Source: an uncultured Ectothiorhodospiraceae bacterium (GTDB lineage: Bacteria; Bacteroidota; Ignavibacteria; SZUA-365; GCA-2699105). From it: a stretch of 64,000 bases of DNA. This document shows, piece by piece, positions 31,485 through 64,000 of the stretch (position 1 is its first letter; each line of letters starts with the position of its first letter). The notes under the pieces were generated by a model. It was not told the origin of the DNA and made no database searches. It saw only the letters and a program-made list of their open reading frames with translations. The translations under genes were made by a program, and so were the position numbers. Location: NCBI GenBank assembly GCA_964408855.1, contig CAYPBB010000004.1, positions 51,764 through 115,763 on the forward strand, read 5' to 3'.

Positions 31485-33671
31485 TTGCTGAAACGTCTTC
31501 GTATCAAGACAAAACTGCAGTTGGCATTTCTGGTATTCGGGTTGTTTATCGTTGTTGCAACCGGATGGCAGGCATATACCAGCGGCCGAAGTGCGTTGGA
31601 GGAATTAAGCTTCCACCGGCTGACCTCGTTGCGGGAATCGAAGAAAAGCCAGATCGAGTTTTATTTCGACCAGTTGCACGACCAGGCGGCGACAATTTCC
31701 GAAAATCTGACGGTTCAACGAATCTATCCGGCGCTCAGGCGCGATTTCTTTGCGTTAAAACAGAAGTACGCATCATCGGGAAGCATCGGCGACGTTCCGA
31801 TTTTGCGGCAATATTATAAACAGACCGATTTTGGATCTTTGTTATCGAACGGCAACGCAACCTGGAAAATGCTCGCGTCCGACCCCTCCATCGCAGCATT
31901 GCAGCGCAGGCGGTTTATCCCGGCGGCCGGTACGGAATTCGAAGAACAGGGCGTAACTTCGCTACGCGTCCCTCCGATCCAGACCGAGGCGTACGAAGCG
32001 GCTGATGCACTAATGGACGAATATGCGCAGAGGTTCGGGTACTCGAACATCATGCTCGTCGATACGGAGACAGGGTTCATCATCTACACGCTCCATCCCA
32101 ATCCTGTGTTCGCAGCGTCGTTGTTATCGCCGCCGTTTTCGTCCACGCGGCTGGCGGCCGCATTTACCTATGCGCGCGATTCGCTCCATGCACCGTATTC
32201 AGGATTGACGGATTTTTCCTATAGTATCATGTCCCCTAAACGGCCCGTGGCATATATTGCCTCGCCGCTGAGCGGCAACGGAAACGCCGGTGTTTTGATA
32301 CTGGAGATCGGAACGGGTGAAGCGGATAAAATCATGACCGGCAGCCTCGATTGGGAACGGCAGGGATTGGGGAAGTCCGGCGAATCGTACATTGTCGGCA
32401 GCGACTTGCTCATGCGGTCCGATTCGCGGTTTCTACTCGCGAATCCAAAACTGTACCGGAATTACCTCAAAGAGACGGGCGTTTCCGCCGATACCATTCG
32501 ACTGATCGATTCGCTGAAAACGACGATCCTTTTACAGCCGGTACAAACATCCGCCGCGACGCGGGCGCTCGGAGGGCAGACAAACACAACCATTCTTGAC
32601 GATTACCGGGGCGAAAAGGTGCTCAGCTCATACTCTCCGCTGCATATCCGGGGAGTCGATTGGGTGATCATCGCTGAAATCGATACAAAAGAAGCATTCG
32701 CTTCGGTGTATGCTCTTCAGGAAAACCTCATACTTTTCGCCTTCATCATTCTGCTGATCGCGGCAGTCGCTGGATATGTAATCTCGAAAACAATCTCGAA
32801 TCCCATCTCGTTGCTGGCGTCGGCAACCGAGCATATCGGGAAGGGCAATCTTGCCTGGCGCGTGCAAACGGAGTCGTACGACGAAATAGGCGATCTTGCC
32901 CGCACCTTCAACGTCATGGCTGATAATCTGAAGCGGATGACCGATGCCCTCCAGAACGAGGTTGCCGAACGCATGAAGGCAGAATCGAACCTGCAGGAAA
33001 GCCATGAACGGCTGCGGAGCCTTTCAGCCCATCTGCAGACGATAACCGAGGAGGAGCGCAAGGCGCTTGCGCGGGAAATCCACGACGAGCTTGGTCAGGC
33101 ATTGACGGCCCTGAAGATGGAAACCGGTATGCTCGAAAAGCGTCTGGGCGATTCCGGCGCAGGGATGAAGGAACGGCTGGCGCAAATGAACGGACTCATC
33201 GGCGATACGATACAGACGGTGAAACGGCTCACCGCCGAGTTGCGGCCCGGTATACTCGACGATCTCGGCCTTTCCGCGGCAGTCGAATGGCAGGCCGAGG
33301 AATTTATGAAACATACAGGCATTCAATGTACTGTCGTGTGCTCGCCGCAGGAGATCATCGTCGCACAGGATGTCTCGATTGTCGCCTTCAGGTTGTTTCA
33401 GGAGACGTTGACGAACGTGGCGCGTCATGCTGAGGCGCAATCGGTGCATGCCTCGCTCGAAGAAGAGGAAGGACTGCTGCAGCTCATCGTTGCCGACGAC
33501 GGGATCGGTATCTCATCTGAAAGTATCGAACAGCCGGCGTCGTTCGGAATACTCGGTATGCGCGAACGCGTGCTGGCTATTGGAGGGACGCTGGAGATAT
33601 CCGGCGAAACGGGAAAGGGGACGACAGTGAAAGCAATTTTGCCAATCAATGCAAGGATTACCGAATCATGA
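31485..33671 (+). CDS. sensor histidine kinase (periplasmic sensor domain, HAMP, HisKA_3-type dimerisation, HATPase)
   Basis: TTG start; the in-frame stop just upstream excludes an ATG. N-terminal TM. Roughly 380 aa periplasmic region. Second TM followed by HAMP. H-box REIHDELGQ typical of NarL-partner kinases. ATP-binding G-boxes at the C-terminus. Confidence 0.8.
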   Translation: MLKRLRIKTKLQLAFLVFGLFIVVATGWQAYTSGRSALEELSFHRLTSLRESKKSQIEFYFDQLHDQAATISENLTVQRIYPALRRDFFALKQKYASSGSIGDVPILRQYYKQTDFGSLLSNGNATWKMLASDPSIAALQRRRFIPAAGTEFEEQGVTSLRVPPIQTEAYEAADALMDEYAQRFGYSNIMLVDTETGFIIYTLHPNPVFAASLLSPPFSSTRLAAAFTYARDSLHAPYSGLTDFSYSIMSPKRPVAYIASPLSGNGNAGVLILEIGTGEADKIMTGSLDWERQGLGKSGESYIVGSDLLMRSDSRFLLANPKLYRNYLKETGVSADTIRLIDSLKTTILLQPVQTSAATRALGGQTNTTILDDYRGEKVLSSYSPLHIRGVDWVIIAEIDTKEAFASVYALQENLILFAFIILLIAAVAGYVISKTISNPISLLASATEHIGKGNLAWRVQTESYDEIGDLARTFNVMADNLKRMTDALQNEVAERMKAESNLQESHERLRSLSAHLQTITEEERKALAREIHDELGQALTALKMETGMLEKRLGDSGAGMKERLAQMNGLIGDTIQTVKRLTAELRPGILDDLGLSAAVEWQAEEFMKHTGIQCTVVCSPQEIIVAQDVSIVAFRLFQETLTNVARHAEAQSVHASLEEEEGLLQLIVADDGIGISSESIEQPASFGILGMRERVLAIGGTLEISGETGKGTTVKAILPINARITES

Positions 33672-46752: not shown

Positions 46753-48774
46753 TTACTTCGTCAGCACCATCTTCTTGGTCGCGCGGTAGTTGCCTGCTTC
46801 GATGCGGTAGAAGTACACGCCCGAAGGTGCAACATGCGTATCAGTGTTGGTGGTTCCGTTCCAGGCGACGCGGTATGTGCCGGCCTGGTAGAATCCGTCG
46901 ACAAGAACGTTCACGCGTTTACCGTTTGCGTCGTACACGGCGAGCTTCACGTTCGCTCCTTTCGGGACGGAGAACATGATTTCGGTGCTCGGGTTGAACG
47001 GATTCGGGAAGTTCTGTGCGAGGTTGTAGTTGTTCGGAACCGCGCCGCCGACAGGTTCAACGTTCACTTTCTTCATCTCGTCGATGGAGGCCTTCAATAA
47101 TGCTTCCGCATATTTGAAGTTGTGGACGCCGAAGCTGTTGTCGTTGTTCACAAAGTAGTAATTCCAATGAACGTCGATTTCAAGCTGCGTCTTCAGCGCA
47201 GTATCGGACGGGAATCGCGGTCTGCCGTCCGGACGGAGCTTCAGATAGCCCTTCAACTCGTCGAGAAGCGCCTTGATTTCGGTCTGCGTTTCTTCCATTT
47301 CCGTCAGCGTGACGCCGCTCGTGTGGCAGGTCTTGCAACCGGTGTTGTTCAGGACATCGTCGGTAGCATCGTTCGGAGTGTCGTTGTCATAGAGAACACG
47401 GAAGGTGTGACCGCCGAGTTTATTGTTATACTGCGCATCCTCTGGTTCCGCCATGTGGCATTCGGCGCATGCGTCGGCAATGTTGGTGTGAACCGAATTC
47501 GGGTAGCTGTAACCCGGGAATTCGCGACCGCCTTCGCCCTTCAGCATCGGTCCCTGGTGCGAAGCGTGGAGACCGCTCTGACCGGAAGGACGGATACTGT
47601 GGCAATCGGCGCACAACTGGTTTTTGGCTTTCCGCAACTGCGACGGATTTGCGTTGCTGTGCGGATCGTGGCAGGTGACGCAACCGACGTAGGCGGGATC
47701 CTTGTACGGCGCATTCGAGAAGGAAGTTTCCGGCGGATTGGCGCTCTTGACGAACACATCGAGATAGCCTGCGGATGTATGGCAGCGGGCGCAATCGCTG
47801 TTCACGTTGGTCTTGCTGCCGCGGTTCATGTATTCCGGAAGCTCTGGACCTTCATCCATCGAGTGGCTGTGCGCGGAGTTCTCGTATTCCAGAAGCGTAC
47901 GGTGGTAGGGCGGCGCATCGTGGCACTGCTTGCACGTCTCGCTCGATGCGGAAGAATAAATCTTGTTGTCGCCGGTCGGGCCGCCGTGGGCGCTGCCGGG
48001 GCCATGACACGATTCGCATTGAATGCCTGCGCGGTGCGCGAGCATAGGCGCGACGAGCTTTAACGAATCCCAGTTGCCGGCTTTCAATTCGGTTGGGAAC
48101 GTCCAACTGCTCGATTTTGCTAGATGAAGGAATCCATCGCCTTCCGCAGCCGGATTCGTGGAACCAGTGGTGTGGCAACCGAGGCAGTTTGAATTGAAAT
48201 GCCCGCCGACTTCATCAAGCCGGCGTTCCAATGCCGTTGCGTGCGCCGTCTGGTTCCATGTAGTTGCTACGGCGCTGTGGCACATAGCGCACTGCGGATA
48301 CGTCGCCGCGCCGCCGAGCATGGTGCCGACGCCGACATACTTGGCGACGTTGATCGCAAGCGTGTCCGTTCCGCCGTTCCCTTTGTTGTCCGTAGCGGTA
48401 AGCTGGATTTTATACGTTCCTTCCATGTCTGGAATGAAGAACGCGCGTTGCTGATCGATCATCGTGAACGCCGCGGTCGATCCTGCAGGCGCAGAGATGA
48501 ATGTGAATGTCGATGATGCCCAGGCTGTTGCGTCGCCGTTTGTAGCGTCGCGGGAGAATTTCCCGAAGACGCCCAAATAGACTTTTCCGCCTTTGGCGCA
48601 ATTCGGTAGACCGCTGAACGGCACATCGTACGCATCCGCAGGATCCGCAGCGACGAGGTTCGGCGATACGCCAAACGTACGGGCTTTCACAACAGCCGGG
48701 GTTAGCTGAGCATGGAGCGGCAGTGCGAAGCTCACCAGCACGGCTGCTACCAGAAATAGATGCAATGCCCTCAT
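46753..48774 (-). CDS. extracellular nonaheme c-type cytochrome with T9SS C-terminal sorting domain
   Basis: Signal peptide MRALHLFLVAAVLVSFALPLHAQ. Nine CxxCH motifs (CAMCH, CLGCH, CESCH, CKQCH, CARCH, CVTCH, CADCH, CAECH, CKTCH). C-terminal roughly 90 aa fits the T9SS CTD pattern (NFPNPFNPSTEI...VYDANGKRV...SGVYFYRIEAGNYRATKKMVLTK). Confidence 0.75.
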   Translation of the reverse strand: MRALHLFLVAAVLVSFALPLHAQLTPAVVKARTFGVSPNLVAADPADAYDVPFSGLPNCAKGGKVYLGVFGKFSRDATNGDATAWASSTFTFISAPAGSTAAFTMIDQQRAFFIPDMEGTYKIQLTATDNKGNGGTDTLAINVAKYVGVGTMLGGAATYPQCAMCHSAVATTWNQTAHATALERRLDEVGGHFNSNCLGCHTTGSTNPAAEGDGFLHLAKSSSWTFPTELKAGNWDSLKLVAPMLAHRAGIQCESCHGPGSAHGGPTGDNKIYSSASSETCKQCHDAPPYHRTLLEYENSAHSHSMDEGPELPEYMNRGSKTNVNSDCARCHTSAGYLDVFVKSANPPETSFSNAPYKDPAYVGCVTCHDPHSNANPSQLRKAKNQLCADCHSIRPSGQSGLHASHQGPMLKGEGGREFPGYSYPNSVHTNIADACAECHMAEPEDAQYNNKLGGHTFRVLYDNDTPNDATDDVLNNTGCKTCHTSGVTLTEMEETQTEIKALLDELKGYLKLRPDGRPRFPSDTALKTQLEIDVHWNYYFVNNDNSFGVHNFKYAEALLKASIDEMKKVNVEPVGGAVPNNYNLAQNFPNPFNPSTEIMFSVPKGANVKLAVYDANGKRVNVLVDGFYQAGTYRVAWNGTTNTDTHVAPSGVYFYRIEAGNYRATKKMVLTK

Positions 48775-52599: not shown

Positions 52600-53160
52600 C
52601 TATTTTGGCAAACCGTGCTCGATTTTCGCCCACATTTCCTTCATTTTGAAGGCTTTATATGTCGGGCTTTTTTCGTTGTGGCACTGCTTGCAATGCTTTT
52701 CGGCGCTGCCGTCGGCCACCTTGGGTAATTCCAGTCCGAGTTTCTTCGCTTCTTCAAGCTGTTCGGGTTTGTTGTGTTTCGTCTTGAACAGCGATGCAGC
52801 ACCGTGGCACGATTCGCAGCCGACGCCTTCGGCTTTGTCGAACTTCGCGTCGAACTTCGCAGCTTTTTCCATCATCCCGGTAACATGGCAACTGAGGCAT
52901 TCCGGCGTTTCGGCTGCCTTGGTTTTAAAGCCTTTGTCTGCCGCGATTTTGTCCGCAGCGGGTGTTTGAAGGGTTTTGAACGCACTGGCATGGGCGCTCG
53001 ACTCCCATTTGGCGTACACTTTACCGCCCTTGTCGGTGTTATGGCATCCTTTGCACGACTTGGCGCCGACGTATTGCGGCGAATCGGCTGGCGTGAGAGT
53101 GAATGCGCACAACGCCACAAAAACGATCGATCCGAGAATTGGCACGACGACTCGTTTCAT
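52600..53160 (-). CDS. periplasmic tetraheme c-type cytochrome
   Basis: Signal peptide. Four CxxCH (CKGCH, CLSCH, CESCH, CKQCH). 186 aa, Lys-rich. Confidence 0.8.
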   Translation of the reverse strand: MKRVVVPILGSIVFVALCAFTLTPADSPQYVGAKSCKGCHNTDKGGKVYAKWESSAHASAFKTLQTPAADKIAADKGFKTKAAETPECLSCHVTGMMEKAAKFDAKFDKAEGVGCESCHGAASLFKTKHNKPEQLEEAKKLGLELPKVADGSAEKHCKQCHNEKSPTYKAFKMKEMWAKIEHGLPK

Positions 53161-53267: not shown

Positions 53268-55538
53268 TTACGACTGAGGATGTTCCTTCGCGCCGTTCAC
53301 GCTTTCTTCGTCGTCGGTGATGATTGTCACATCACCGGCTTTCGCCTTCAGGCGCTCGAGTTCAAGTGGATGCTCTTCGAGCATTTCATGCTCGGTGAGG
53401 GTACCCTTGAACCAGGCGACATTCATCGGATATACGTCTGGGTTGAAGATGATAAAGTAAAAATGCCAGACGATGATAGCAAGCGTTGCGAGCCATGCTT
53501 CGTAAAAATGGATGATGGTCATGATATCGAGGAATTCCTTCGAGGTCATCGCTCCGAAAAACTCATGGAACCACAGCATCAGACCCGTCGCGCCCATCAC
53601 GATCGTGCCCCAGATCAACGCCCAGTATTCGGCTTTCTCCATATAACTGAATCTGTCGAACCTCGGCCGGTCGCCGGTTCTGCCGAGGTACCACTTGAAT
53701 GCCTGAAGCGCATCTTTCACATCTTTCCAGATAGGCAGCATATCCTTGATGAACTGTCTGCCGCGTTTGGTGGCGACCATGTACCAGATGTGATACAGCG
53801 ACGCAGCGAGCATGACGGCTCCGGCAATTCTGTGAAGAACGCCGCGCAGTTCAAACGCCGGTTCGCCGAGAATCTCGCGGATGTATACCACCCACCATGC
53901 ATTGGGGTAGGTCAATCCAAAGCCGGTGAATACGAGCAGAATGAAACTCAGTGCGAGCGTCGCGTGCTGGATTCGCTCGCTCAGCGTCATTCTCAGATAT
54001 AGATTGTGGGCAACCTCGTGCTGGTGACCTCTACGGCGGGCTTTCAGCTTTTCGAGCGCCTTCTTCCTGAAATCAAGCAGATTGTGGAAGAGCATCCCGC
54101 CGATTGTCAGTACGATGAGCAGGATGTAGATCGTCGTGATCGTGTATTGAATTCCGGATTCCTTCTCGGTGCGGACAACATGGATCGGACCTTTTGTAAA
54201 GCTCTCGGAGGCGTTCGGATGGCACTTCCCGCATGTTTGTTTCAAATTGGAGGGATGAATGCTCGACGTTGAATCGCTCGATGGTTTAATGCTATGCGCG
54301 CCGTGGCAGCTCGCGCAATTCGCTGCGACTTTCGATCCGCCCTGAACGGCGAGCCCGTGATAGCTGTCGAGATAGCTTTCTCCGGGATTCGCGACGATAC
54401 CGTATTTGTCTGCCATGCGCACCGAGTTGTGGCAGGGAAGACACACCTTCTCCGGAAGGTTGCGGCTGTTTACCGGCGATTGCTTTGAATCGACGGCAAG
54501 AATGCCGTGTTCTCCGTGGCAATCGGTACAAGATGGCGCATCGCGGACGCCGCGCGCAAGCGCCGAACCATGGATGCTCTCGTTGAATTCCGTTTTGATG
54601 GCATCGTGACATTTCCCGCATGTAGTCGGAATTTTCAGCTTGTTCACTTTCGAGTCCGCGACAGACCCGGGCGCTACTTCGTGCGCTCCGTGGCAATCGA
54701 TGCAGTTTGCAGCATCAGCATTACCGCGGTGCAGCGACATCCCGTGGATGCTATGCTCATACGCATCGATGAAACCGGCGCTTGTCGCCATGCGCGATTT
54801 CACATCGTCGTCGTTTTGATGGCATGAAAGGCAGAGTTTTTCCTGCGCAATCTTCAGGTCCAGCTTGCTCAGTCCGCTGCTGGGCGTGATCGATTTGGAG
54901 TGGCACGAAATACATGTCGGCGCGCCTTTGACATTGGCGGCGACTGCTTTCCCGTGCCACGATGCGTTGAATGTCGCGACCTCGGCGCTGTGGCATGTGC
55001 CGCACGACTTGTTCAGATTTGCGCTGGAAAATGGAGAAGCCGGGTTTTTCGGAGCGACGACATTATGTGTTCCGTGGCACTCCTTGCACGCCGATTGCAA
55101 ACGTCCGGCAGTCTTAGCGGCATTCAGCATTGAGGCGTGGAATTTGTGCGTCTGCAGCGCGTCTTTATGGCAGCTTGTACACTGCACCGGAGTGATTTTC
55201 TCTTTATGCGGCACATCGTCGGGATTGAATCCGACATGACAAGAGATACAACTCAGCTTGCTATGAGGAGAGGCTTTCAGAATCTTCGGATTGGTGTAGA
55301 GCGAAACCTCTCTCCCGTTTTTCTCCATCGTCAAATCTTTATCGTTATGGCAAGCCTGACAATCGGCGACCGATTGGGCGATACTTTGTCCGCTGAATAT
55401 CAGCAGTACCGCCGCAGACAGGAATGCCAGAAGCTGGGTCCTTTTCATCGAAGTATACCTGCTTTCGGAGCAAATCTGGCGTTTGTTAAATTCAACGTGC
55501 TTCCTTTCTGGTGTAGTATTCATGGGTTTGCGCGGCAT
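53268..55538 (-). CDS. CbcL-like fusion: periplasmic multiheme (13 CxxCH) c-type cytochrome domain plus C-terminal membrane di-heme cytochrome b (HydC/FdnI-type) domain
   Basis: Signal/anchor. Thirteen CxxCH motifs in the N-terminal roughly 430 aa. C-terminal roughly 300 aa carries 4-5 TM helices with conserved His (HNLLDF, HRIAGAV, HFYEAW, WHFYFI), as in Ni/Fe-hydrogenase / formate-dehydrogenase b-type cytochrome subunits. Confidence 0.7.
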   Translation of the reverse strand: MPRKPMNTTPERKHVEFNKRQICSESRYTSMKRTQLLAFLSAAVLLIFSGQSIAQSVADCQACHNDKDLTMEKNGREVSLYTNPKILKASPHSKLSCISCHVGFNPDDVPHKEKITPVQCTSCHKDALQTHKFHASMLNAAKTAGRLQSACKECHGTHNVVAPKNPASPFSSANLNKSCGTCHSAEVATFNASWHGKAVAANVKGAPTCISCHSKSITPSSGLSKLDLKIAQEKLCLSCHQNDDDVKSRMATSAGFIDAYEHSIHGMSLHRGNADAANCIDCHGAHEVAPGSVADSKVNKLKIPTTCGKCHDAIKTEFNESIHGSALARGVRDAPSCTDCHGEHGILAVDSKQSPVNSRNLPEKVCLPCHNSVRMADKYGIVANPGESYLDSYHGLAVQGGSKVAANCASCHGAHSIKPSSDSTSSIHPSNLKQTCGKCHPNASESFTKGPIHVVRTEKESGIQYTITTIYILLIVLTIGGMLFHNLLDFRKKALEKLKARRRGHQHEVAHNLYLRMTLSERIQHATLALSFILLVFTGFGLTYPNAWWVVYIREILGEPAFELRGVLHRIAGAVMLAASLYHIWYMVATKRGRQFIKDMLPIWKDVKDALQAFKWYLGRTGDRPRFDRFSYMEKAEYWALIWGTIVMGATGLMLWFHEFFGAMTSKEFLDIMTIIHFYEAWLATLAIIVWHFYFIIFNPDVYPMNVAWFKGTLTEHEMLEEHPLELERLKAKAGDVTIITDDEESVNGAKEHPQS

Positions 55539-55589: not shown

Positions 55590-57080
55590 TCAGTTCCCGA
55601 GATGGCAATCGGAACAATTCGCGGTTTTCCATGCATCGTCGATATCCGACGGATGGTTGAACTCCATTCCGTCGAGGCTGCTTACAGGACTTGTCGCCGG
55701 TCCCTGTCTAATTATTGCATGGCAGACCGAACAGTCGTTCGATATGACCTTGCCGTCTTCCGAAACGTGCTTGTTATCGTGGCAGCGGAAACAGCCGATA
55801 TTGTACATATGCCCGATGTTGTTTGGATAGGCTTTCCAATTGACCTTCATTTCGGCGAAGAAATTCCTCGAATAAATTCTCATTATCTCCGTGATCGCGC
55901 GCTCTACATCCTGGGAGCGGGTTTTCAGGATTTCCGGAGCGCGTTCGCGGTATTCGCCGCGGATGATGTCGGGAATCTCCAAACGAGCCTGTGTTGACGT
56001 CGCGAACTCGCGGGTCATTGCATACGAAGCGATGCCTCTGATACCCGGGAGCGTAGGATCGATCTTGCCGTTCGCCATAGCGTCGTTGATTGTCCGGAAC
56101 GGCGGATAGTAGATATGAGAAGGACGGTTATGGCAGTCGATGCAATCCATTTTGCGCTTCTCGTATTTCCCGATTTCCTTCCCGGAAATCTCATGGTCCT
56201 TCGAACGGAATATCCGTACTTCGCCTTTCAGGTTCTTGCTCATGACCCAGGGGATGACCTGGCGTTTATCGTCGGACGCGATATAGGTTATTTCCTGTTC
56301 GGTATTCATATGCCAATGGATGCCTTCCGTAGGACCCAATTCGCTCTGTCCGCCGCCGATTTTAAGATCCATTTCGATGATCCACGGCACGGTTCCTGTT
56401 GTATCGATCGGGAAGTACACCTTCTTCAATTTCTTTTCGGCGGTGAATTTGCTGGGCCAGTGGCATTCCTCGCACGTTTCGCGCGCCGGACGCAGGTTGT
56501 GGACGGGCGTTTCGATTGGCCGGTGATACTTATCGAAGATGACCGAGTACACCTGGTACATACCGCTGATCTTGGCTTTGACGAACCAATCAGCGCCGGT
56601 GCCGATATGGCACTCGGCGCAGGCGACGCGGGCATGCGGGGAATGCTGGTACGCAGTATACTCGGGGTTCATGACCTCATGGCATACTTCGCCGCAGAAC
56701 TCAACCGATTCGGAATAGGTGTAGGTCTGATACATACCTGCCGCGGAGATAACGATCAGGAACATCGTTCCCACAGTGAAGATCATCACCGCCATGCGAT
56801 GGCGGGGCAGATTCAGATCGAGGTGGATGTACCGGCGCGGTTCGCCGTGGCGTTTCCGCCGCCGGCGCCGTTCCCAAAGAATACCGATAGGGATGAGGAA
56901 GAGTCCGGCAAACATGATTCCCGGAAGAATCATATACGTGAAGATCCCGAGATAGGGCGAACTGGTAAAGCCAAGCACATCCATCATGAAGAACACGAAG
57001 ATGCTGCCCAGAGTCAGGAGGGTGATTCCTACTCCGGCAAGGCTAATCGGATTGTAGACGATATCCGGCAATCTTCTCAT
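55590..57080 (-). CDS. ImcH-like inner-membrane multiheme c-type cytochrome (NapC/NirT-like quinol dehydrogenase family)
   Basis: Two or three N-terminal TM helices. Six CxxCH (CAECH, CEECH, CIDCH, CFRCH, CSVCH, CSDCH) plus one Cx3CH (CGEVCH). 496 aa. Confidence 0.6.
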   Translation of the reverse strand: MRRLPDIVYNPISLAGVGITLLTLGSIFVFFMMDVLGFTSSPYLGIFTYMILPGIMFAGLFLIPIGILWERRRRRKRHGEPRRYIHLDLNLPRHRMAVMIFTVGTMFLIVISAAGMYQTYTYSESVEFCGEVCHEVMNPEYTAYQHSPHARVACAECHIGTGADWFVKAKISGMYQVYSVIFDKYHRPIETPVHNLRPARETCEECHWPSKFTAEKKLKKVYFPIDTTGTVPWIIEMDLKIGGGQSELGPTEGIHWHMNTEQEITYIASDDKRQVIPWVMSKNLKGEVRIFRSKDHEISGKEIGKYEKRKMDCIDCHNRPSHIYYPPFRTINDAMANGKIDPTLPGIRGIASYAMTREFATSTQARLEIPDIIRGEYRERAPEILKTRSQDVERAITEIMRIYSRNFFAEMKVNWKAYPNNIGHMYNIGCFRCHDNKHVSEDGKVISNDCSVCHAIIRQGPATSPVSSLDGMEFNHPSDIDDAWKTANCSDCHLGN

Positions 57081-57126
57081 ACGTACCTCGCTTCAACACA
57101 ATGTTGAAATATTCCACTACAGTTCA

Positions 57127-57185
57127 AGTCACAGGTGCATTCTTCGCAGGCGCATTCTTCACAGGTGCATTTTTCGCAGGTGCTG
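57127..57185. repeat. 15-bp tandem repeat (CAGGTGCATTCTTCG-like) x3.7 in the upstream region of the ImcH-like gene
   Basis: Units CAGGTGCATTCTTCG / CAGGCGCATTCTTCA / CAGGTGCATTTTTCG / CAGGTGCTGG. Located 47-105 nt upstream of the minus-strand start at 57080. Confidence 0.8.
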
Positions 57186-57378
57186 GTTCATCAAGGTCTA
57201 TCGTCGTAAAATACCAAAATACTGGTAGATGGGGTACAATAATACGATAAAATAGAGTATAAATGTAGAAATATGACGCTGGTCCGACAGTTGTTTTTCG
57301 TAAATGTCTTCAAATAATATCCGCAATCAAAATCATCTATCCAATATTCAGATAATATACTCTGAATATTATCGAAAA

Positions 57379-57933
57379 TTACGCTTGAGCGGTCTTCAAG
57401 TCATCGATACGCGATTGAACTACGCCTTCGCATTCGCGGCAATAGTACGCCTCCTTCAGGTCGATGTCTTCTACATACGTGGACGCATTCATCGCGCATC
57501 CTGGATTGATGCAATGGCGCAATCCGAACGTATGCCCAAGTTCGTGGACTGCTTCCTTCAGCGAGCGCTGGTAAAGCATGTGCGGCGATGGCTGCAGCCC
57601 GTAGAACTCGTTGTGGAGCCGGAACGTGGAAAACACGGAAGCGCGGTTATCGACCTGCGCCTGTCCGAACAGAAACGTCAGCACGGGCAGGAATAAATCG
57701 TAGCTCGTCACGCCGAGTATTTTCGAAACGCCCGCAGGCGCATGTTCGAGAAGCATTGCCAGGATACGCGCGGAATGATATTGCCTTCGCGATGAATCAT
57801 GCGCATCGTGTATAGGTAGCGCCAGATTCACCGGTTCTACAGGGAGATGGTAGACCAACGCCAGATCGGTGCAGAACTCCTGCAAGGGAAGCGGCGTATT
57901 CAGGGCTATCGGTACCACGTGTATCTTAACCAT
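57379..57933 (-). CDS. archaemetzincin-like zinc metalloprotease
   Basis: HELGHTFGLRHC motif followed by CxxC (CAMNASTYVEDIDLKEAYYCRECE), characteristic of the archaemetzincin (AmzA) family. 184 aa. Confidence 0.65.
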   Translation of the reverse strand: MVKIHVVPIALNTPLPLQEFCTDLALVYHLPVEPVNLALPIHDAHDSSRRQYHSARILAMLLEHAPAGVSKILGVTSYDLFLPVLTFLFGQAQVDNRASVFSTFRLHNEFYGLQPSPHMLYQRSLKEAVHELGHTFGLRHCINPGCAMNASTYVEDIDLKEAYYCRECEGVVQSRIDDLKTAQA

Positions 57934-57943
57934 TCAGATCGCA

Positions 57944-59305
57944 TTAATCGGGGCGTTTAAGGCCGTATTTTTCGATTTTATTGTACAAGGTTACCCGGTC
58001 GATTCCGAGCCGGTCGGCGCTGCGGGTAATATTCCAATTCAGATCGTCGAGCGTTTTCATGATATGGAAGCGTTCCATGTCCGCAAGCGACTCGCTAGCG
58101 CTTTGGTTGCCTGCCGAGGAAAGCTGCATCGGAAGATGTTTCAACCGTATCGCTTCGTCGCCGCAAACGACCATGGCGCGTTCGATAGCGTTCTCCAACT
58201 CACGCACGTTGCCGGGCCATGGGTATCCAACCATCGACTCGATCGCTTCGGGAGTGATATTCCGGGACTGTTTATTCATTCTGGTTGCGTACTTTTTCAC
58301 GAAGTGCGCAGCGAGTATGGGAATGTCGCTCCTCCGGTCGCGCAGTGGGGGAACGTGAATCGCGAATACGTTAATTCTATAGTAGAGGTCTTCCCGAAAC
58401 GTACCTTCTTTCACCGCTTTTTCCAAGTCCATATTCGTCGCGCATACCAGTCTGAAGTCGACATGGATTTGTTTCTCGCCGCCGACTCGTTGAAACTGTT
58501 TGCTTTCCAGGACGCGCAGCAAATCGACTTGGGATTTCAGACTGAGCGTTCCGATTTCATCCAGAAACAGCGTTCCGCCGTTCGCCATCTCGAAGCTGCC
58601 TTTCCGGCGGTACTGCGCGCCGGTAAATGCGCCTTTCTCGTGACCAAACAGCTCGCTCTCGATAAGCGAATCAGCAAGGGCGCCGCAGTTCACCGGTATG
58701 ATCGGGAAATACTTCCGTTCGCTGTTCGAATGAATCGCTTTAGCGATCAGCTCTTTCCCGGTCCCGCTCTCGCCAAGAATCAGTACGGTAGAATCGGTGG
58801 GCGCAACCGTGCGTATCAACTCGAACACCGATTGCATTCCTGTGCTTTCGCCGATGAAATCCTCGACGTTGTGCAGCGTTTCAATCCGTTCCTTGAGCTG
58901 CACGTTTTCCTTTTTCAGCATCCGCTGATGCGCGGCGTTCCGAACCATCACCGTTAGCTCATCCGGATCCACCGGCTTCGTCACGTAATCGAAGGCGCCG
59001 GCTTTCAGCGCTCTGACAGCCGAATCCACCGCGGCGAATGCCGTGATGATGATGATGACAATCTCGCCGTCGAATTCCCTGATTCGGTCCTGCAGCGCAA
59101 GTCCGTCCATACCGGGCATCTTGATATCGAGAAGAATGATGTCGATCGTGGACTTCTGGATCAGATTCAGCGCGTCGGCGGCGTTTTCGGCAGTGCTGAC
59201 CTGATATCCTTCGTCGAGGAACCATTCGCAAAGCGACTCGCGAACGGATAGTTCGTCGTCGACGATAAGGATATGGATGGATGCGCGGTCGAGTGTTTGG
59301 TTCAT
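57944..59305 (-). CDS. sigma-54-dependent response regulator (NtrC/Fis family: REC + AAA+ sigma54-interaction + HTH)
   Basis: REC domain ([18 protein letters not shown]). Walker [15 protein letters not shown] sigma54-contact motif. C-terminal Fis-type HTH. Confidence 0.85.
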
Positions 59306-59359
59306 ATTCGTACAGTTAAGAATGAATGCCAGAGCGTGAATATCTGTATTCGGATCGCA

Positions 59360-61090
59360 TTACGATCCCTCCTGTGGACCGTCGGCTGGGAGGAGGACAC
59401 GGAATGCCGTTCCTTTCCCCAATTCGCTCATTACTTTAATATCGCCTTTGTGCCGCTTGACGATGCCGTAGACGATAGAGAGACCGAGACCTGTGCCGTG
59501 TCCGACTTCTTTTGTCGTTACGAAAGGTTCGAACAAACGCGGCAGGAGCGTTTCATCGATACCGCTGCCGTTGTCCTTGACGGTGATCTCGGCGATGGAA
59601 TGTTGGATCTCCGCGCTGATGCGGATCGTCCCTCCGTCCTGCATCGCCTCGATGCTGTTGACAACAAGCGCGATGATCATTTGCTGTATCTGATTGGCGT
59701 CGCAGACAATGGTTGTCTCCTCGCTTCTGAAATCCTGCACCAGCCGCACCATCTGCATATCGGCTTTGTGTTGAATCAGCCGCACACATTTATCGATCGT
59801 ATCCCTCAAATCGGTTTTTGTATACGAGGCCGAGTCGCTTCTGGCGAAGAACAGGAGGTTCTTCACGATATCGCCGCAGCGCTTCGCTTCGTCGGCAATG
59901 AGCGTGGAATCCTTCATGATTTTTTCGATCATTTCGGGCGTAAGTTCCATTCGGGACATTCTGCTCCTGATCAGCCGCGCATACGTAAGTATACCCGAGA
60001 GGGGATTGTTCAACTCGTGCGCGATCATCGAACTCAACTGCCCGAGCGACGCCATTTTTTCGATATGGACGACCTGCGCCTGCACCTCCTGAAGTTCGCG
60101 CGTTTTTTCTTCCACTTTCTGTTCGAGCGTGTTGGACCATTCGACAAGCTCTGCCTTTGCCGCCTTGATATCCGACGCCATTTCGTTGAACGAACGGTTT
60201 AGCATCCCAAGCTCGTTCTTTGTATCGACCGCGAGCTTGTAATCGAGGTTGCCTGCGGAGATAGCCTTTGTTCCATCGATCAGTTTCTGAACGGGGCGGT
60301 GGACGAATGAAACAATGAAGAATCCTGCGACACTGCCGACCGCGAGAAGCGAAATGAGCGCGCTTATTATGAGCATGTTGCGGCTCTTGTCGGTGTATTC
60401 GTCGACCATTTCCATGGAAAGCTGCACATCGAGAACGCCGAGGATCGTTTGGTCGGGGGTATGAACATGACAGCTTTGGTAGCACTCGCGTTCGTTCTGA
60501 ATCGGATTGATCAGTCCGAGCACCCGGTGTCCCGAAGCGGCCTCGTATACGCGCAAATACTGATCGGTCTTGGTTTTATTAAATCCGTCGCCCGAGCCGT
60601 GGCACATGGTGCAGGCGTCGGCGTCGACATCGACCACGCGACCGATTTCCGTGCTATCGGAGCTATACCGGATTACTCCGGCTTTGTCGTACACCCGGAT
60701 GCGTTCGGTACCCTTGGTCTTTCCCAGATCCATGATAGTGAATGCAATGGATTCGATGTCGTTGTGCTGCATGCCATAGCGCAACGACCGCTTGGTCATT
60801 TCCGAAGTGCGCTCGGCGCAACCTTCAACGGCCTTCGAAAAGTACCGCATTTCGGAGGTAACATTATAATAGGTAGTAATGGACAGTACCAGTACCAGAG
60901 CCAGTACAAGGAGGATGATTATTTTGAAACTCAGCGACTGATACAGTTTCATCGTTCCGTCCATAATAAAGGACATTCCCGTCTGTAAAGTAGTAAAGAA
61001 AAGCGCCTTTTTCAAGGCGCTGTAAAAAAAATCAACAACATTATTGCATGCCGTAATAAATACGCTGAAAATCCCTATGTTTTTCGCCAC
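59360..61090 (-). CDS. sensor histidine kinase with periplasmic domain carrying c-type heme-binding motifs
   Basis: TM, roughly 170 aa periplasmic segment, second TM, HAMP-like linker, coiled coil, HisKA (H-box IAHELNNPL), HATPase (G-boxes). The periplasmic segment contains CTMCH (CxxCH) and CYQSCH (Cx3CH). True start may be an internal Met near 60952. 16-nt overlap with the upstream gene. Confidence 0.8.
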   Translation of the reverse strand: MAKNIGIFSVFITACNNVVDFFYSALKKALFFTTLQTGMSFIMDGTMKLYQSLSFKIIILLVLALVLVLSITTYYNVTSEMRYFSKAVEGCAERTSEMTKRSLRYGMQHNDIESIAFTIMDLGKTKGTERIRVYDKAGVIRYSSDSTEIGRVVDVDADACTMCHGSGDGFNKTKTDQYLRVYEAASGHRVLGLINPIQNERECYQSCHVHTPDQTILGVLDVQLSMEMVDEYTDKSRNMLIISALISLLAVGSVAGFFIVSFVHRPVQKLIDGTKAISAGNLDYKLAVDTKNELGMLNRSFNEMASDIKAAKAELVEWSNTLEQKVEEKTRELQEVQAQVVHIEKMASLGQLSSMIAHELNNPLSGILTYARLIRSRMSRMELTPEMIEKIMKDSTLIADEAKRCGDIVKNLLFFARSDSASYTKTDLRDTIDKCVRLIQHKADMQMVRLVQDFRSEETTIVCDANQIQQMIIALVVNSIEAMQDGGTIRISAEIQHSIAEITVKDNGSGIDETLLPRLFEPFVTTKEVGHGTGLGLSIVYGIVKRHKGDIKVMSELGKGTAFRVLLPADGPQEGS

Positions 61091-61866
61091 GCGTTGAGTT
61101 TTTCAACGATGAATTGTTGATACGAGTCATCGCCGAATGCCATTTCAAGGTCTTCGACCGGCTGACCTCCGTCGTTGAGACAGATCCCTGGAAGTGGAGG
61201 CTGAAGCAATGCCTGTGCCGCCGAATCCATGAACTCGGTCATCATTGATTGTATGTGGCGTTCTGCCTCGTCGACTGAAGCGAGCGGAGAGTGCTCTCCT
61301 GCGGTTTCGTCGCTTTTTATTACAGCCAGCCAGCCGCGCTCATATGGCGATGTGCGGATATCGTTCGTCACTTTCCCGAACGATCCATTGCGTCTTACGA
61401 TAGAACCCCGGAACGGCGATAATAATGGAACGGTACATCCGCCAAGGTAAATCCACCCGAATGGGTTTTCCATTTCGGTATCGCTTTCGGCTGCGAGCGT
61501 GATGATATCGGCATTCTTCGGGAGGATGCGCAGAAGATAGGCATCGATCCCGACGCGGAAATATCCGCCAGGAAGCTGCTGTACCCACAATTGACCGGGC
61601 GTGTAACGATACTCGGTATGCAAGGATACGGAGGAATACGGTTTCAGCAGCGTCGCCACTTCTTCGGGTATTTCGGCCGCGATAGGCACGCGTACCGAAC
61701 GAAGCATATCTTCCGCGCGTCCCGCCGCTCTCGGAAATTCGCGCTGCAGAACGCTGTCCAGCGGGCAGTGTTCGCAATCGAAGTTTCTGTCGCAGCGTTT
61801 GTAGGATAGCACGCCGGCATTCATCCATACGCAGCAGTCGTTGCATTTTTCAAATCTTACCAGCAT
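61075..61866 (-). CDS. GcvH-like (glycine-cleavage H fold) protein lacking the lipoyl-lysine, with N-terminal Cys-rich motif
   Basis: N-terminal C..CC...C..C..C cluster (CNDCCVWMNAGVLSYKRCDRNFDCEHCP). Central and C-terminal segments align to the GcvH pattern (VGIDAY...; SPYERGWLAVIKS), but no SVKA lipoylation motif. Confidence 0.45.
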   Translation of the reverse strand: MLVRFEKCNDCCVWMNAGVLSYKRCDRNFDCEHCPLDSVLQREFPRAAGRAEDMLRSVRVPIAAEIPEEVATLLKPYSSVSLHTEYRYTPGQLWVQQLPGGYFRVGIDAYLLRILPKNADIITLAAESDTEMENPFGWIYLGGCTVPLLSPFRGSIVRRNGSFGKVTNDIRTSPYERGWLAVIKSDETAGEHSPLASVDEAERHIQSMMTEFMDSAAQALLQPPLPGICLNDGGQPVEDLEMAFGDDSYQQFIVEKLNAWRKT

Positions 61867-61911
61867 TGTGTCCTCCCAGTAGTAGGTACTGGAATTATTG
61901 AGTTACGCATG

Positions 61912-63096
61912 TTATGCCTGTGCCGGTTCGGATTCCATCGCTCTCACGGATCCGATTTCGATGATGATTTCCTCGTCGGCATGTTCTTCCGGGAAGATGG
62001 GCAGGTATTGAACGGCTTTCGAGAAAATGAAGAAGCCGAATGTAACGATGCCTCCGGTGATCATGATTTCCTCGAACGAGGGGAAGTAGACGCCCCCATA
62101 GTACGAGTCGAGCGAGGTGGTGGTGACGTTGAGCCGGTTCGCGACAAATCCGAGCACGACCGATATAGAGATGAAGAACAACCCAAGACGGGTTCTGCGG
62201 AACTGCTTCATCGCATATAGCGCGACCGGGAGAACGACGAATAAACCAAGCTCGAGCAGCAGCATGTTGGATTCAAGCGTTCCGTTGAAGAGCGTGCCCA
62301 GCAGTCCTTTGCCGCCGAGATCGAGCAGGCGCATCGTGGTATAGACGAGCAACACGGCAATCATGATGCGCGCGAGATTGAATAACAGCGGCGTTTCGAG
62401 CGTGCGCTTGAATGCCCGCGAACTGAAGTACGATTCGACGATCGTCATTCCGATACCCACGGCAACAGCCGAGACGAAGAAGAACACCGGCAGCATCGGC
62501 GAGTACCAGAACGGATGCATCTTTTGCGGAATGATCAGGTACAGACTGCCCAGCGACGATTGATGAAGCATGGACAGCAGGATGCCCGCGATGACAAGCG
62601 GAATGGTGATTGCCTTGACGATCTTCAATGTCCGCGTGAGTTTAAAACGTTCCAGCACGACGGGACTGAATTCCAGCGCCAGCACCGTTGAATAGAGCAT
62701 CACGCACCATGCGACCTCGAACATAACGGAGTGGGGATTCCACATAATGATGGCATGCCAGATCGCCCAGGGACGTCCAAGATCGAACATCAATCCGGCA
62801 ATCACGAGCGTGTAACCGAGAAAGGCAGTCAGCACCGTAGGACGGACAATTGGTTTGAATTGCTTTATGTTGAAAATGTAGACGATGGCGCACAGTGTGA
62901 AGCCCCCGGCTGCGAGTCCTACACCGGTAACCACATCGAATCCGATCCACAAACCCCAGGGAGTGGCATCGGAAAGGTGGGTGGTGGCCCCCAGTCCGTA
63001 GACGAACCGCCGGAACGTCACGATCGCAGCGCCGACGATGAAAAACATACCGACAACGCGCCAGAAGGTAATCTTGGGAATAGCGAAACGTTTCAT
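61912..63096 (-). CDS. NrfD/PsrC-family integral membrane quinone-interacting subunit
   Basis: 394 aa, about 10 TM helices. N-terminal pattern (PWGLWIGFDVVTGVGLAAGGF) typical of NrfD/PsrC/HmcC-type subunits. Confidence 0.8.
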   Translation of the reverse strand: MKRFAIPKITFWRVVGMFFIVGAAIVTFRRFVYGLGATTHLSDATPWGLWIGFDVVTGVGLAAGGFTLCAIVYIFNIKQFKPIVRPTVLTAFLGYTLVIAGLMFDLGRPWAIWHAIIMWNPHSVMFEVAWCVMLYSTVLALEFSPVVLERFKLTRTLKIVKAITIPLVIAGILLSMLHQSSLGSLYLIIPQKMHPFWYSPMLPVFFFVSAVAVGIGMTIVESYFSSRAFKRTLETPLLFNLARIMIAVLLVYTTMRLLDLGGKGLLGTLFNGTLESNMLLLELGLFVVLPVALYAMKQFRRTRLGLFFISISVVLGFVANRLNVTTTSLDSYYGGVYFPSFEEIMITGGIVTFGFFIFSKAVQYLPIFPEEHADEEIIIEIGSVRAMESEPAQA

Positions 63097-63106
63097 GGCA
63101 TCCTCC

Positions 63107-63862
63107 TTAGCGCTTGGGGTTGTTACGTTGTTCGAGTTCGGCGTGTTGCCGTACTTCTTCGCGGCGGCTGGTGATCCAGTACACCGCCGAGAGCATCACT
63201 CCGGCAGTGGCGACGATGTTGGGAAGCTTCGAGAGGACATTCCATGTATGGTTCGGCAGCGCCTCCATACCGACCTTCGTTGCGAATCCCAATTGTTCGA
63301 ACGGCACGCTCGAGAGATAGAGGATCGAGGTCCCGCCGGCTTCGCCCTGTCCATAGACGCGCTTCACGTAGGTATCGGGCGAATCGTTGATGCGTTGCAG
63401 CGCCTCGGCGAGAAGTTCGTCGCGCTTGCCGAATTTCGTCGCCTCAGCCGGGCAGGCTTCGCTGCAGGCGGTCGGCAATCCCTTGCTCGTGCGCTCGTCG
63501 TAGCACATCGTGCATTTGCGGATGCGCGGCGAGTTGCTGGACCATTCGTACTTGGGAATTTCGAACGGACATGCAAGCATACAGTACCGGCAACCGAGAC
63601 ACTTATCGGCATCGTAGTTGACGGGTCCTTCCTTCGATTTGTATAGCGCGCCGACCGGGCACACGCTGGCGCATGCGGGCTGTGCGCAATGCTGGCACAT
63701 CCGGCGGATGTACAGGTCGTTTTTTTCTTCAATGAACGTAAAGTTGTTGGCGGTGAGCGCCTTGATTTCCTTTACCGGAAACTTGTGCGATTCCTGGCAT
63801 GCGGTTTGGCACGCACCGCAGCCGACGCACAGCGTCAGATCTATCAATAATCCGTACGGCAT
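63107..63862 (-). CDS. 4Fe-4S ferredoxin-type iron-sulfur subunit (NrfC/PsrB/HmcB-like), four [4Fe-4S] binding motifs
   Basis: Four Cys clusters: CVGCGACQTAC; CQHCAQPACASVCP; CLGCRYCMLACP; CTMCYD...CSEACP. Directly upstream of the NrfD-like gene. Confidence 0.85.
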   Translation of the reverse strand: MPYGLLIDLTLCVGCGACQTACQESHKFPVKEIKALTANNFTFIEEKNDLYIRRMCQHCAQPACASVCPVGALYKSKEGPVNYDADKCLGCRYCMLACPFEIPKYEWSSNSPRIRKCTMCYDERTSKGLPTACSEACPAEATKFGKRDELLAEALQRINDSPDTYVKRVYGQGEAGGTSILYLSSVPFEQLGFATKVGMEALPNHTWNVLSKLPNIVATAGVMLSAVYWITSRREEVRQHAELEQRNNPKR

Positions 63863-63916
63863 TGTCTGCTCCTTAGGTAACGGGTGAAAACACAGTGAAA
63901 CGGGTTGCCGGCGTGG

Positions 63917-64000
63917 TTAGCGTAGGAAATTCTGTTCGAATTCCTTCAGCGCCGCTTCGTCCAGCAGTTCCAGCGTGCCCGATACCGCCACGCCGCCGTC
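63917..64000 (-). CDS. 3' end of an upstream gene continuing beyond the window (unknown product)
   Basis: Open minus-strand frame ending ...LELLDEAALKEFEQNFLR with stop complement at 63917-63919. Only 28 codons visible. Confidence 0.3.
   Translation of the reverse strand, partial: DGGVAVSGTLELLDEAALKEFEQNFLR

Follow-up and report, generated by a model that had tools for sequence, protein, structure and literature searches.

Organization of the Locus

We analyzed a stretch of 64,000 nucleotides (nt), hereafter the window, from an uncultured Ectothiorhodospiraceae bacterium placed by GTDB in the Ignavibacteria (contig CAYPBB010000004.1, positions 51,764 to 115,763 of the forward strand). Near its end, the window encodes a sensor histidine kinase with two putative heme c motifs and an NtrC-class, sigma54-dependent response regulator, followed by an archaemetzincin gene. 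All relevant genes lie on the minus strand, in the order upstream operon, kinase, regulator, archaemetzincin, ImcH-like, and CbcL-like (Table 1). The upstream operon encodes GcvH-like, iron-sulfur (FeS), and NrfD-family proteins; the ImcH-like and CbcL-like genes belong to a cytochrome cluster, in which more cytochromes follow below the CbcL-like gene, down to 46753, and which is separated from the archaemetzincin gene by an AT-rich gap of 300 nt. An earlier note on this DNA had named the pair a strong candidate regulator of the cytochrome cluster. The comparative evidence presented here points instead to the other neighbor, and we consider it reasonably probable that the two-heme kinase and its sigma54 partner activate the upstream GcvH-like/FeS/NrfD operon.

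The mechanical kinase open reading frame (ORF), whose residue numbers are used here, spans 59360-61090 with a GTG start at 61090. Because this start overlaps the preceding gene and precedes a hairpin terminator, and because the gene was independently called from 60964 on L081, a contig identical to the window, the real gene is 59360-60964 or, from an alternative start at 60952, 59360-60952. The product consists of a first transmembrane helix (TM1), a periplasmic sCache/PAS-like domain with two heme motifs, a second transmembrane helix (TM2), and HAMP, HisKA, and HATPase_c domains. As the earlier note had reported, the motifs CTMCH (residues 160-164) and CYQSCH (residues 203-208; 60467-60484, followed by V-H) are present in this domain. 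Since a hydrophobic helix flanks them on either side (residues 54-73 and 239-263), with HAMP behind the second, the segment that carries them is predicted to be periplasmic.

The regulator, likewise identified correctly in that note as an NtrC-type sigma54 activator, matches the Pfam families REC (PF00072, 7e-33), sigma54-interaction AAA+ (PF00158, 8e-72), AAA lid (PF25601), and HTH_8 (PF02954, 2e-11), and carries GAFTGA at residues 225-230 (58616-58633). Its NCBIfam matches are AtoC, ZraR, and NtrC-like, all under the equivalog cutoffs, and its orthologues in related loci share 51-67% identity with it. The third gene meets the archaemetzincin model NF033823 at 145.6 bits (cutoff 145), matches Peptidase_M54 (E 7e-21), and encodes the motif HELGHTFGLRH (HExxHxxGxxH) at residues 130-140 (57514-57546).

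A Neighborhood Conserved Across Phyla

We compared the locus with 80 related loci, drawn from 252 relatives in species-representative genomes and spanning Ignavibacteria, Bacteroidota, Acidobacteriota, Deltaproteobacteria, KSB1, Kryptonia, Eisenbacteria, Gemmatimonadota, and others; the denominators for conserved context count only loci with enough flanking sequence. The regulator gene lies directly behind the kinase gene in 69 of 69 loci. Directly before the kinase stands a GcvH-like gene, ending at most 700 nt away (59/70), and co-directional FeS and NrfD genes are found further upstream in 45 of 58 loci, where the operon is headed by one or two additional membrane-anchored GcvH-like genes. 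The archaemetzincin gene follows as the third gene, behind kinase and regulator, in 60 of 65 loci from many phyla, which suggests a functional tie between this predicted metalloprotease and the signaling pair.

The first gene of the upstream operon is complete on L081, a Logan contig that shares 10,770 identical nt with the window and continues 862 nt past its end. The product is a GcvH-like protein of 224 amino acids (aa) with an N-terminal membrane helix. In an alignment with GcvH proteins from the PDB, the GcvH-like proteins have a Gly at the lipoyl-lysine position and a Lys or Cys one residue on. The NrfD protein scores 313 bits for HmcC and 298 bits for HybB in NCBIfam, both under the cutoffs, and the FeS protein scores 242 bits for HmcB in a match that starts at profile position 37; the latter protein has no N-terminal signal sequence and carries a C-terminal hydrophobic helix. 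These two proteins are most similar to HmcB/HybA and HmcC/HybB of the quinone-interacting FeS/NrfD modules HmcBC and HybAB. Unlike those modules, however, the window proteins score far under the equivalog cutoffs, the FeS protein is without the N-terminal twin-arginine translocation (Tat) region, the operon encodes neither a cytochrome nor a hydrogenase partner, and the partners here are two to three GcvH-fold proteins. No description of a GcvH-like and NrfD combination was found in the searchable literature, and the operon, which occupies 61075-64000 in the window and L081 1-3788, is conserved and apparently undescribed.

Promoter and Operator Signals Point to the Upstream Operon

Upstream of the first GcvH-like gene, L081 carries the sigma54-like element TGGCACGCGGATTGTA (TGGCAC-N5-TTGT; L081 201-216, ~64647-64662 in window numbering), 71 nt ahead of the ATG. 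About 150 nt upstream of this element stand two adjacent palindromes (L081 30-50 and 51-71, ~64792-64833; 22.1 and 19.6 bits). As read from the sequence, element and palindromes are laid out in the classic manner of an enhancer-dependent promoter and, because they lie ~650-830 nt past the window end, the likely primary target is placed just outside the window.

In the related loci, sigma54 elements of at least 11 bits occur upstream of the first GcvH-like gene in 24 of 45 cases, compared with 3.6% of random windows; all of them lie 32-151 nt ahead of the start codon, and 23 lie within 32-89 nt. Elements at this threshold are found upstream of the kinase gene in 10 of 76 loci, typically at -42, and behind the archaemetzincin gene in 9 of 60. 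De novo k-mer analysis of the 380-nt stretch ahead of the first GcvH-like gene returned CAACAC, TCAACA, and TTCAAC, enriched 5- to 7-fold, which yield TTCAACAC/GTGTTGAA and are present in 32-38 of 45 upstream regions. The preferred arrangement is GTTGA-N5-TCAAC, often as a 22-bp repeat, 130-260 nt ahead of the start codon. Palindromes with at most one mismatch are densest ahead of the first GcvH-like gene (2.92 per kb), followed by the stretch before the kinase gene (0.20 per kb), the stretch behind the archaemetzincin gene (0.074 per kb), and the rest of the loci (0.047 per kb). Since the sigma54 activator is the only regulator conserved in the cluster, the palindrome is its putative binding site, and the combined promoter and operator pattern makes the upstream operon the likely target of the regulator.

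The best palindrome of the window, cGTTGAgttttTCAACg, is perfect and lies ~140 nt upstream of the kinase start, within the 3′ end of the preceding gene; a weaker palindrome-like site stands beside the terminator-like hairpin AGCGCCTT-GAAA-AAGGCGCT, which has a comparable counterpart in the same place in Ignavibacterium-like relatives. The regulator thus probably exerts feedback on its own operon, and the perfect palindrome would mediate it on the kinase, regulator, and archaemetzincin genes. By hand inspection, no degenerate GG-N10-GC elements were found in 60952-61092. Another sigma54-like element, CGGCACAGGCATTGCT (61205-61220, minus, 14.1 bits), ~100 nt upstream of the perfect palindrome, was set aside as a probable chance match because it lies inside the GcvH-like coding sequence (encoding AAQALLQP), upstream of palindrome and terminator, and is missing from relatives at that place; the rate in related loci predicts ~4 sigma54 sites of 12.5 bits or more in each window. 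That it serves as an unusual promoter with downstream activator sites is conceivable.

Five Ignavibacterium-like loci (L016, L018, L019, L020, and L034) have a strong sigma54 promoter of 14-16 bits behind the archaemetzincin gene, ~3.65 kb past the kinase start. A ferredoxin-like ORF and genes for 2-oxoacid:ferredoxin oxidoreductase come next, an arrangement that points to a larger regulon in this lineage. In L020, the metagenome-assembled locus of Ignavibacterium album, which has the same cluster, sigma54-like sites also stand ahead of the first GcvH-like gene (12.4 bits) and of the kinase gene (13.6 bits).

The Cytochrome Cluster Is Probably Not the Primary Target

The ImcH-like and CbcL-like genes lie downstream and co-oriented, as the earlier note had described. 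It had found no convincing sigma54 promoter by eye in 57081-57380, and our scan agrees: no -24/-12 element was found in 57081-57400, before the ImcH-like gene, where the best score is 0.0 of a maximum of 17.9 bits, and the remaining intergenic gaps of the cluster reach at most 4.3 bits. A scan of the whole window found no intergenic sigma54 site on the strand of the cytochrome cluster. Counts from a sigma70-type scan equaled the shuffle expectation, promoters of the Bacteroidota/Ignavibacteriota type being outside the model of that scan, and Rfam and RNA folding found nothing in the 300-nt gap (folding z-score 0.16). Among the 80 related loci, the kinase gene is adjoined by an ImcH-like gene in none and by a CbcL-like gene in one, and any gene with at least four CXXCH motifs lies within 10 kb of it in 14; on this comparison, the adjacency seen in the window is lineage-specific. 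With no -24/-12 element at the cytochrome genes, and with a kinase, regulator, and archaemetzincin trio conserved together with the upstream operon, the proposal of a strong candidate regulator of the ImcH-like/CbcL-like cluster finds no support. This cluster is probably not the primary target and has at most a secondary, non-canonical link to the regulator.

Such a link is possible because a palindrome-like array, reading GTgGA-N5-TCAAC-N5-GTTGA on the minus strand, lies close to the ImcH-like start codon (57080). Its 57100-57120 site scores 15.2 with the palindrome position weight matrix (PWM), second-best in the window, and at 57092-57099 it is joined by one more exact half-site, TTCAACAC. 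For this intergenic region, the Markov P is 0.0015, and the empirical expectation from relatives is ~0.02 palindromes per 300-nt gap (background 0.074 per kb). We take the array as a modest argument for either a secondary, perhaps repressive, link or a relic; it is not enough to restore the case for sigma54 activation of the cytochrome cluster.

Two repeats stand in the same gap. A 15-bp tandem repeat of 3.5 copies (57132-57183, minus strand GCACCTGYGAARAAT), which occurs nowhere else in the window, lies 52-103 nt ahead of the ImcH-like start codon, abuts the palindrome-like site, and may be a binding array of another regulator; a sigma54 promoter hidden in these repeats was ruled out on spacing. 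Directly past the archaemetzincin stop codon, a perfect 10-bp inverted repeat (57343-57370; AATATTCAGA, 8 nt, TCTGAATATT), AT-rich and without a T-tract, forms the sole hairpin behind that gene.

The array admits a dual wiring, in which sigma54 activation of the upstream operon would be combined with lineage-specific modulation of the cytochrome cluster, either through the array, probably as a repressor site or roadblock, or by read-through from an autoregulated kinase operon. All the evidence for the upstream operon holds for this alternative as well, the 15.2-bit site comes with its additional exact half-site, the genes are co-oriented, and no T-tract terminator was found behind the archaemetzincin gene. 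We nevertheless judge it unlikely: it depends on one sub-optimal site, possibly a relic or a chance match given the expectation per gap, no comparable arrangement was seen in relatives, and repression from that position by this class of regulator is not established for the family.

We consider it quite improbable that the heme kinase and the sigma54 activator directly activate the ImcH-like/CbcL-like cluster, in the manner of BccR on cbcBA in Geobacter. The genes are immediately adjacent and in the same orientation, the array has a low Markov P, and there is the precedent of BccR (GSU0598), a sigma54 regulator that is required for the cytochrome operon cbcBA to be induced when the potential is low (bioRxiv 10.1101/2021.04.15.440034). 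By gene number, GSU0599 adjoins BccR. Cytochromes also appear in a few relatives. In a Desulfarculales locus (L068, 3455-15328), a 994-aa protein with 19 CXXCH motifs and a divergent CbcL-like gene stand before the kinase, and an extra 583-aa ORF separates kinase and regulator; this locus is a cytochrome-linked branch of the kinase family, nearer to the Geobacter situation. Homologues of the tetraheme cytochrome of the window (52600-53160), with 37-40% identity, lie inside the conserved operon of two loci, ~3.1-2.6 kb (L025) and ~0.7-0.2 kb (L039) before the kinase. Against direct activation stand the sigma54 scores of the cytochrome gaps and the counts of adjoining cytochrome genes given above. 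Moreover, because the palindrome-like site is only 13-40 nt from the start codon, there is no room for a downstream -24/-12 promoter before the ImcH-like gene, and in relatives the palindrome is hardly enriched behind the archaemetzincin gene over its density elsewhere. Finally, imcH and cbcL of G. sulfurreducens are constitutive and BccR-independent (bioRxiv 10.1101/2021.04.15.440034).

A Sensor Domain with Two Family-Defining Heme Motifs

A search with the sensor region returned 25 homologues with 32-42% identity, and every one that covers the region keeps both motifs, which are invariant across an alignment of 26 homologues; an exhaustive profile search of the family gave 2,321 clusters (50% identity level, E <= 1e-3). 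Both motifs are present in nearly all of 173 family members, which answers in the affirmative whether the Cys motifs are conserved in orthologues. Motif 1 always has CXXCH spacing. Motif 2 is CX4CH in more than 140 members, CX3CH, the form of the window, in 4, and CX2CH in 3. The His right after the second Cys is invariant in both motifs in the family alignments, and another His stands two residues past motif 2 in 138 of 148 members. The Met of an M-x-x-N motif lies exactly 53 residues ahead of motif 1 in 233 of 271 members; those that fail this spacing match still have a Met in the helix, where inspected.

Compared with Geobacter sensors, as the earlier note had called for, the family profile finds the periplasmic c-heme domains of two Geobacter sulfurreducens chemoreceptors, GSU0935 (3B42, E 5e-6) and GSU0582 (3B47, E 4e-4). 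In the profile alignment, N-E-x-x-C-x(2-4)-C-H pairs with PFPNEQRCQSCH of 3B42, and also with 3B47, so that CYQSCH falls on their heme CXXCH, and the region of the Met107 helix aligns with a Met-Met stretch of the 3B42 helix. The motif 1 segment, between strands 2 and 3, is ~17 residues longer than in the one-heme Geobacter sensors, and no CXXCH was found in the shorter matching stretch of 3B42. An AlphaFold2 (AF2) model of the sensor domain shows a long N-terminal helix and a five-stranded PAS-like/single-Cache sheet, with a predicted local distance difference test (pLDDT) score of 79.7 and a predicted template modeling (pTM) score of 0.74; confidence is low around motif 1 (pLDDT 49-60, residues 81-100 of the model). 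Foldseek matched this model to WalK, CitA, DcuS, and DctB (E 1e-6 to 1e-3) and to 3B42 (E 4e-4). All 15 aligned members match PF21563 at E <= 0.01, the best at 2.5e-7, and by this comparison the window domain is a distant subfamily. PF11845 (sCache_heme) is not matched by the window domain and only weakly by 2 of 15 relatives (best 5e-4).

GSU0582 and GSU0935 switch between an oxidized high-spin and a reduced low-spin, Met-bound form, have potentials of -156 and -251 mV, and bind nitric oxide (NO) and carbon monoxide (PMC8396549, PMC3460858). Like them, the window sensor is predicted to be periplasmic between two transmembrane helices, with a long, Met-bearing N-terminal helix and a PAS-like sheet; their heme motif, between the last two strands, has the position of motif 2 in the window, and the redox-linked switch of heme coordination is likely a mechanism common to both (PMC8396549). 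The window differs in its second, family-invariant CXXCH, located in the expanded segment between strands 2 and 3, in the conserved His two residues past motif 2, in the CX3CH or CX4CH spacing of motif 2 in its family rather than CX2CH, and in its output, which is a histidine kinase with a sigma54 activator rather than a chemoreceptor. By analogy, the sensor is most likely a periplasmic redox or small-ligand sensor with two hemes and a Met on/off switch.

Taken together, these comparisons make it highly probable that the kinase is a covalent two-heme sensor, in support of what the earlier note had proposed. That note had also raised a non-heme fold with incidental cysteines: as to the fold, which is Cache-like, this stands, whereas the cysteines define the family and lie at a known heme site. 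It is hardly credible that the Cys-His motifs form disulfides or a metal site in an ordinary ligand-binding Cache sensor, a view favored by the best fold matches (the non-heme sensors WalK, CitA, DcuS, and DctB), the low model confidence around motif 1, and the rare CX3CH spacing of the window (4/148), since a His follows the second Cys invariantly in both motifs, motif 2 falls on a covalent heme site that has been solved by experiment, CX2-4CH variation is typical of c-heme sites and reported in Geobacter signal transducers (PMC8396549), and heme-attachment machinery must exist in the host because the window encodes many c-type cytochromes.

Comparison with Known Systems

Versions of such sensors with two heme motifs have been noted before for GSU0591, GSU0599, Adeh_2011, and Adeh_3383 (PMC3831638 and PMC8396549, citing Londer et al. 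2006), and no characterization of any of the four was found in the searchable literature. Going by these descriptions, they resemble the window sensor in having a PAS-like periplasmic domain with one heme motif at the GSU0935 position and an additional one. GSU0599 is, moreover, annotated as a two-component protein, and its gene number puts it next to the sigma54 regulator BccR; its neighborhood, however, is the cbcBA cytochrome operon, unlike the GcvH-like/FeS/NrfD operon and archaemetzincin gene of the window. The sensor type and the regulator class are thus known, and the two-heme version had already been noted.

BccR is likewise a REC, sigma54 AAA+, and HTH regulator that adjoins an operon for a respiratory membrane complex, and its control of cbcBA through a -24/-12 promoter upon falling redox potential may serve as a model for the window pair. 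In the window, however, the operon with the sigma54 promoter encodes FeS/NrfD and GcvH-like proteins rather than a bc-type cytochrome, and the arrangement is co-directional where that of Geobacter is divergent. The ImcH-like and CbcL-like genes of the window, without a sigma54 promoter, match the constitutive imcH and cbcL of Geobacter. The sCache_heme domain (DUF3365/Tll0287, PF11845) also combines an extracytoplasmic Cache-type fold with a covalent c-heme, with NO or redox sensing proposed (bioRxiv 10.64898/2026.02.01.703092, PMC12889525), but it is a family separate from the window domain, contains just one heme, and frequently occurs as a stand-alone protein.

A Model for Signaling

In the model that we propose, heme 1 would be attached to C160 and C163 with His164 as proximal ligand, and heme 2 to C203 and C207 with His208 as proximal ligand. 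By homology with GSU0582 and GSU0935, the readout at heme 2 would be Met107, which would bind and leave the heme depending on redox state or ligand; His210, specific to the family, is a candidate, if speculative, sixth ligand of the extra heme. Movement of the helix would pass through TM2 and HAMP to the kinase core, and the kinase would phosphorylate the NtrC-class regulator, as expected from the domain families. The regulator would then bind TGTTGA-N5-TCAACA palindromes and activate sigma54 RNA polymerase, in keeping with the comparative evidence. Its main target would be the adjoining upstream operon, which encodes the membrane-anchored GcvH-like, HmcB/HybA-like FeS, HmcC/HybB-like NrfD, and Cys-rich GcvH-like proteins.

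What was computed comprises the features of the sequence, the conservation of the motifs, synteny, the homology to heme sensors of solved structure, and the enrichment of motifs and promoters. From these we infer the direction of regulation. Several points weigh against activation of the upstream operon by a two-heme kinase and its partner. The sigma54 PWM follows the published consensus and is not curated, and its scores are approximate. The element TGGCACGCGGATTGTA has GT at -12 in place of the canonical GC and scores only 12.3 bits, and -12 elements are imperfect in several relatives too. Binding of the palindrome by the regulator of the window is deduced from their co-occurrence only. The scan found no -24/-12 element in the interval from the perfect palindrome to the kinase start (best 1.8 bits), and a palindrome with at most one mismatch precedes the kinase gene in only 5 of 76 relatives. 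The 57092-57120 site argues that the cytochrome cluster is not wholly unconnected. On the sensor side, the window domain reaches 21.5 bits (E 2.9e-4) for PF21563, under the gathering score of 27 bits, and the covalent attachment of heme, the switch of ligands, and the signal sensed are predictions.

Table 1. Positions of the genes, domains, and sequence elements discussed, in window numbering
Feature	Coordinates	Strand	Basis or remark
Membrane-anchored GcvH-like gene (G2 type), first of upstream operon	63917-64000	-	Translation; last 27 codons in window
Four-cluster-type FeS subunit, nearest HmcB and HybA	63107-63862	-	Pfam Fer4_11; NCBIfam
NrfD-family membrane subunit, nearest HmcC and HybB	61912-63096	-	Pfam NrfD; NCBIfam
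GcvH-like protein, Cys-rich N-terminus (G3 type), last gene of upstream operon	61075-61866	-	Pfam GCV_H, E 5.5e-9
Perfect palindrome cGTTGAgttttTCAACg	61090-61110	.	PWM 22.0, best in window; 0.01 expected per window
Weaker palindrome-like site beside terminator hairpin, upstream of kinase start	61019-61039	.	PWM 13.8, fourth-best in window
Intrinsic-terminator-like hairpin, then TTTCTTT	61002-61021	-	Terminator scan; between GcvH-like and kinase genes
Sensor histidine kinase, 534 aa	59360-60964	-	Pfam HAMP, HisKA, HATPase_c; start from gene call on identical contig
Predicted periplasmic sensor domain (ORF residues 74-238)	60377-60871	-	AF2 model, Foldseek, family profile
Met107 in RYGMQHN, N-terminal periplasmic helix	60770-60772	-	Candidate redox-dependent distal heme ligand
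Putative heme-c motif 1, CTMCH (residues 160-164)	60599-60613	-	C, C, H invariant in two family alignments
Putative heme-c motif 2, CYQSCH + V-H (residues 203-210)	60461-60484	-	Aligns with heme-binding CQSCH of 3B42 and 3B47
NtrC-class response regulator/sigma54 enhancer-binding protein, 453 aa	57944-59305	-	Pfam
Archaemetzincin-family Zn metalloprotease gene	57379-57933	-	NCBIfam NF033823
Palindrome-like array	57092-57120	.	13-40 nt upstream of ImcH-like start codon
ImcH-like NapC/NirT-type protein	55590-57080	-	6 CXXCH + 1 CX3CH
CbcL-like multiheme protein fused to cytochrome b	53268-55538	-	13 CXXCH

Elsewhere in the window, a second, unrelated sensor kinase (31485-33671) has dCache-like, HAMP, and HisKA_3 domains. 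A multiheme cytochrome with 9 CXXCH motifs (46753-48774) and a heparinase-like protein (17685-20303) share a C-terminal sorting domain for type IX secretion; this is a sign of an organism from the Bacteroidota/Ignavibacteriota group, and export of the cytochrome may proceed through the type IX secretion system.

Biological Significance

Neither the association of the kinase pair with an archaemetzincin gene and an HmcBC-like/GcvH-like operon across phyla, nor the conserved operator TGTTGA-N5-TCAACA with the regulon prediction that results from it, was found described in the searchable literature. A far-reaching possibility, of low probability, is that kinase, regulator, and archaemetzincin form the control unit of an undescribed multi-phylum membrane redox system, in which a cytoplasm-facing HmcBC/HybAB-like FeS/NrfD quinone module would work with non-canonical GcvH-fold proteins under an operator unchanged from Acidobacteriota to Ignavibacteria and Deltaproteobacteria, and that in this organism the unit would additionally be wired, via 57092-57120, to tune cytochromes of the extracellular-electron-transfer type by periplasmic redox state.

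The attractive assignment of the pair to the ImcH-like/CbcL-like genes is corrected here as unsupported. Sensor kinases with covalent heme are thought to report to anaerobes how reducing their surroundings are. For this family, starting points are now available in ~2,300 sequence clusters, which share invariant heme motifs and a candidate ligand Met, in a predicted DNA operator that phyla have in common, and in a defined FeS/NrfD and GcvH-like target operon, and they make the signal sensed by the heme kinase and the genes that it switches on directly testable questions.

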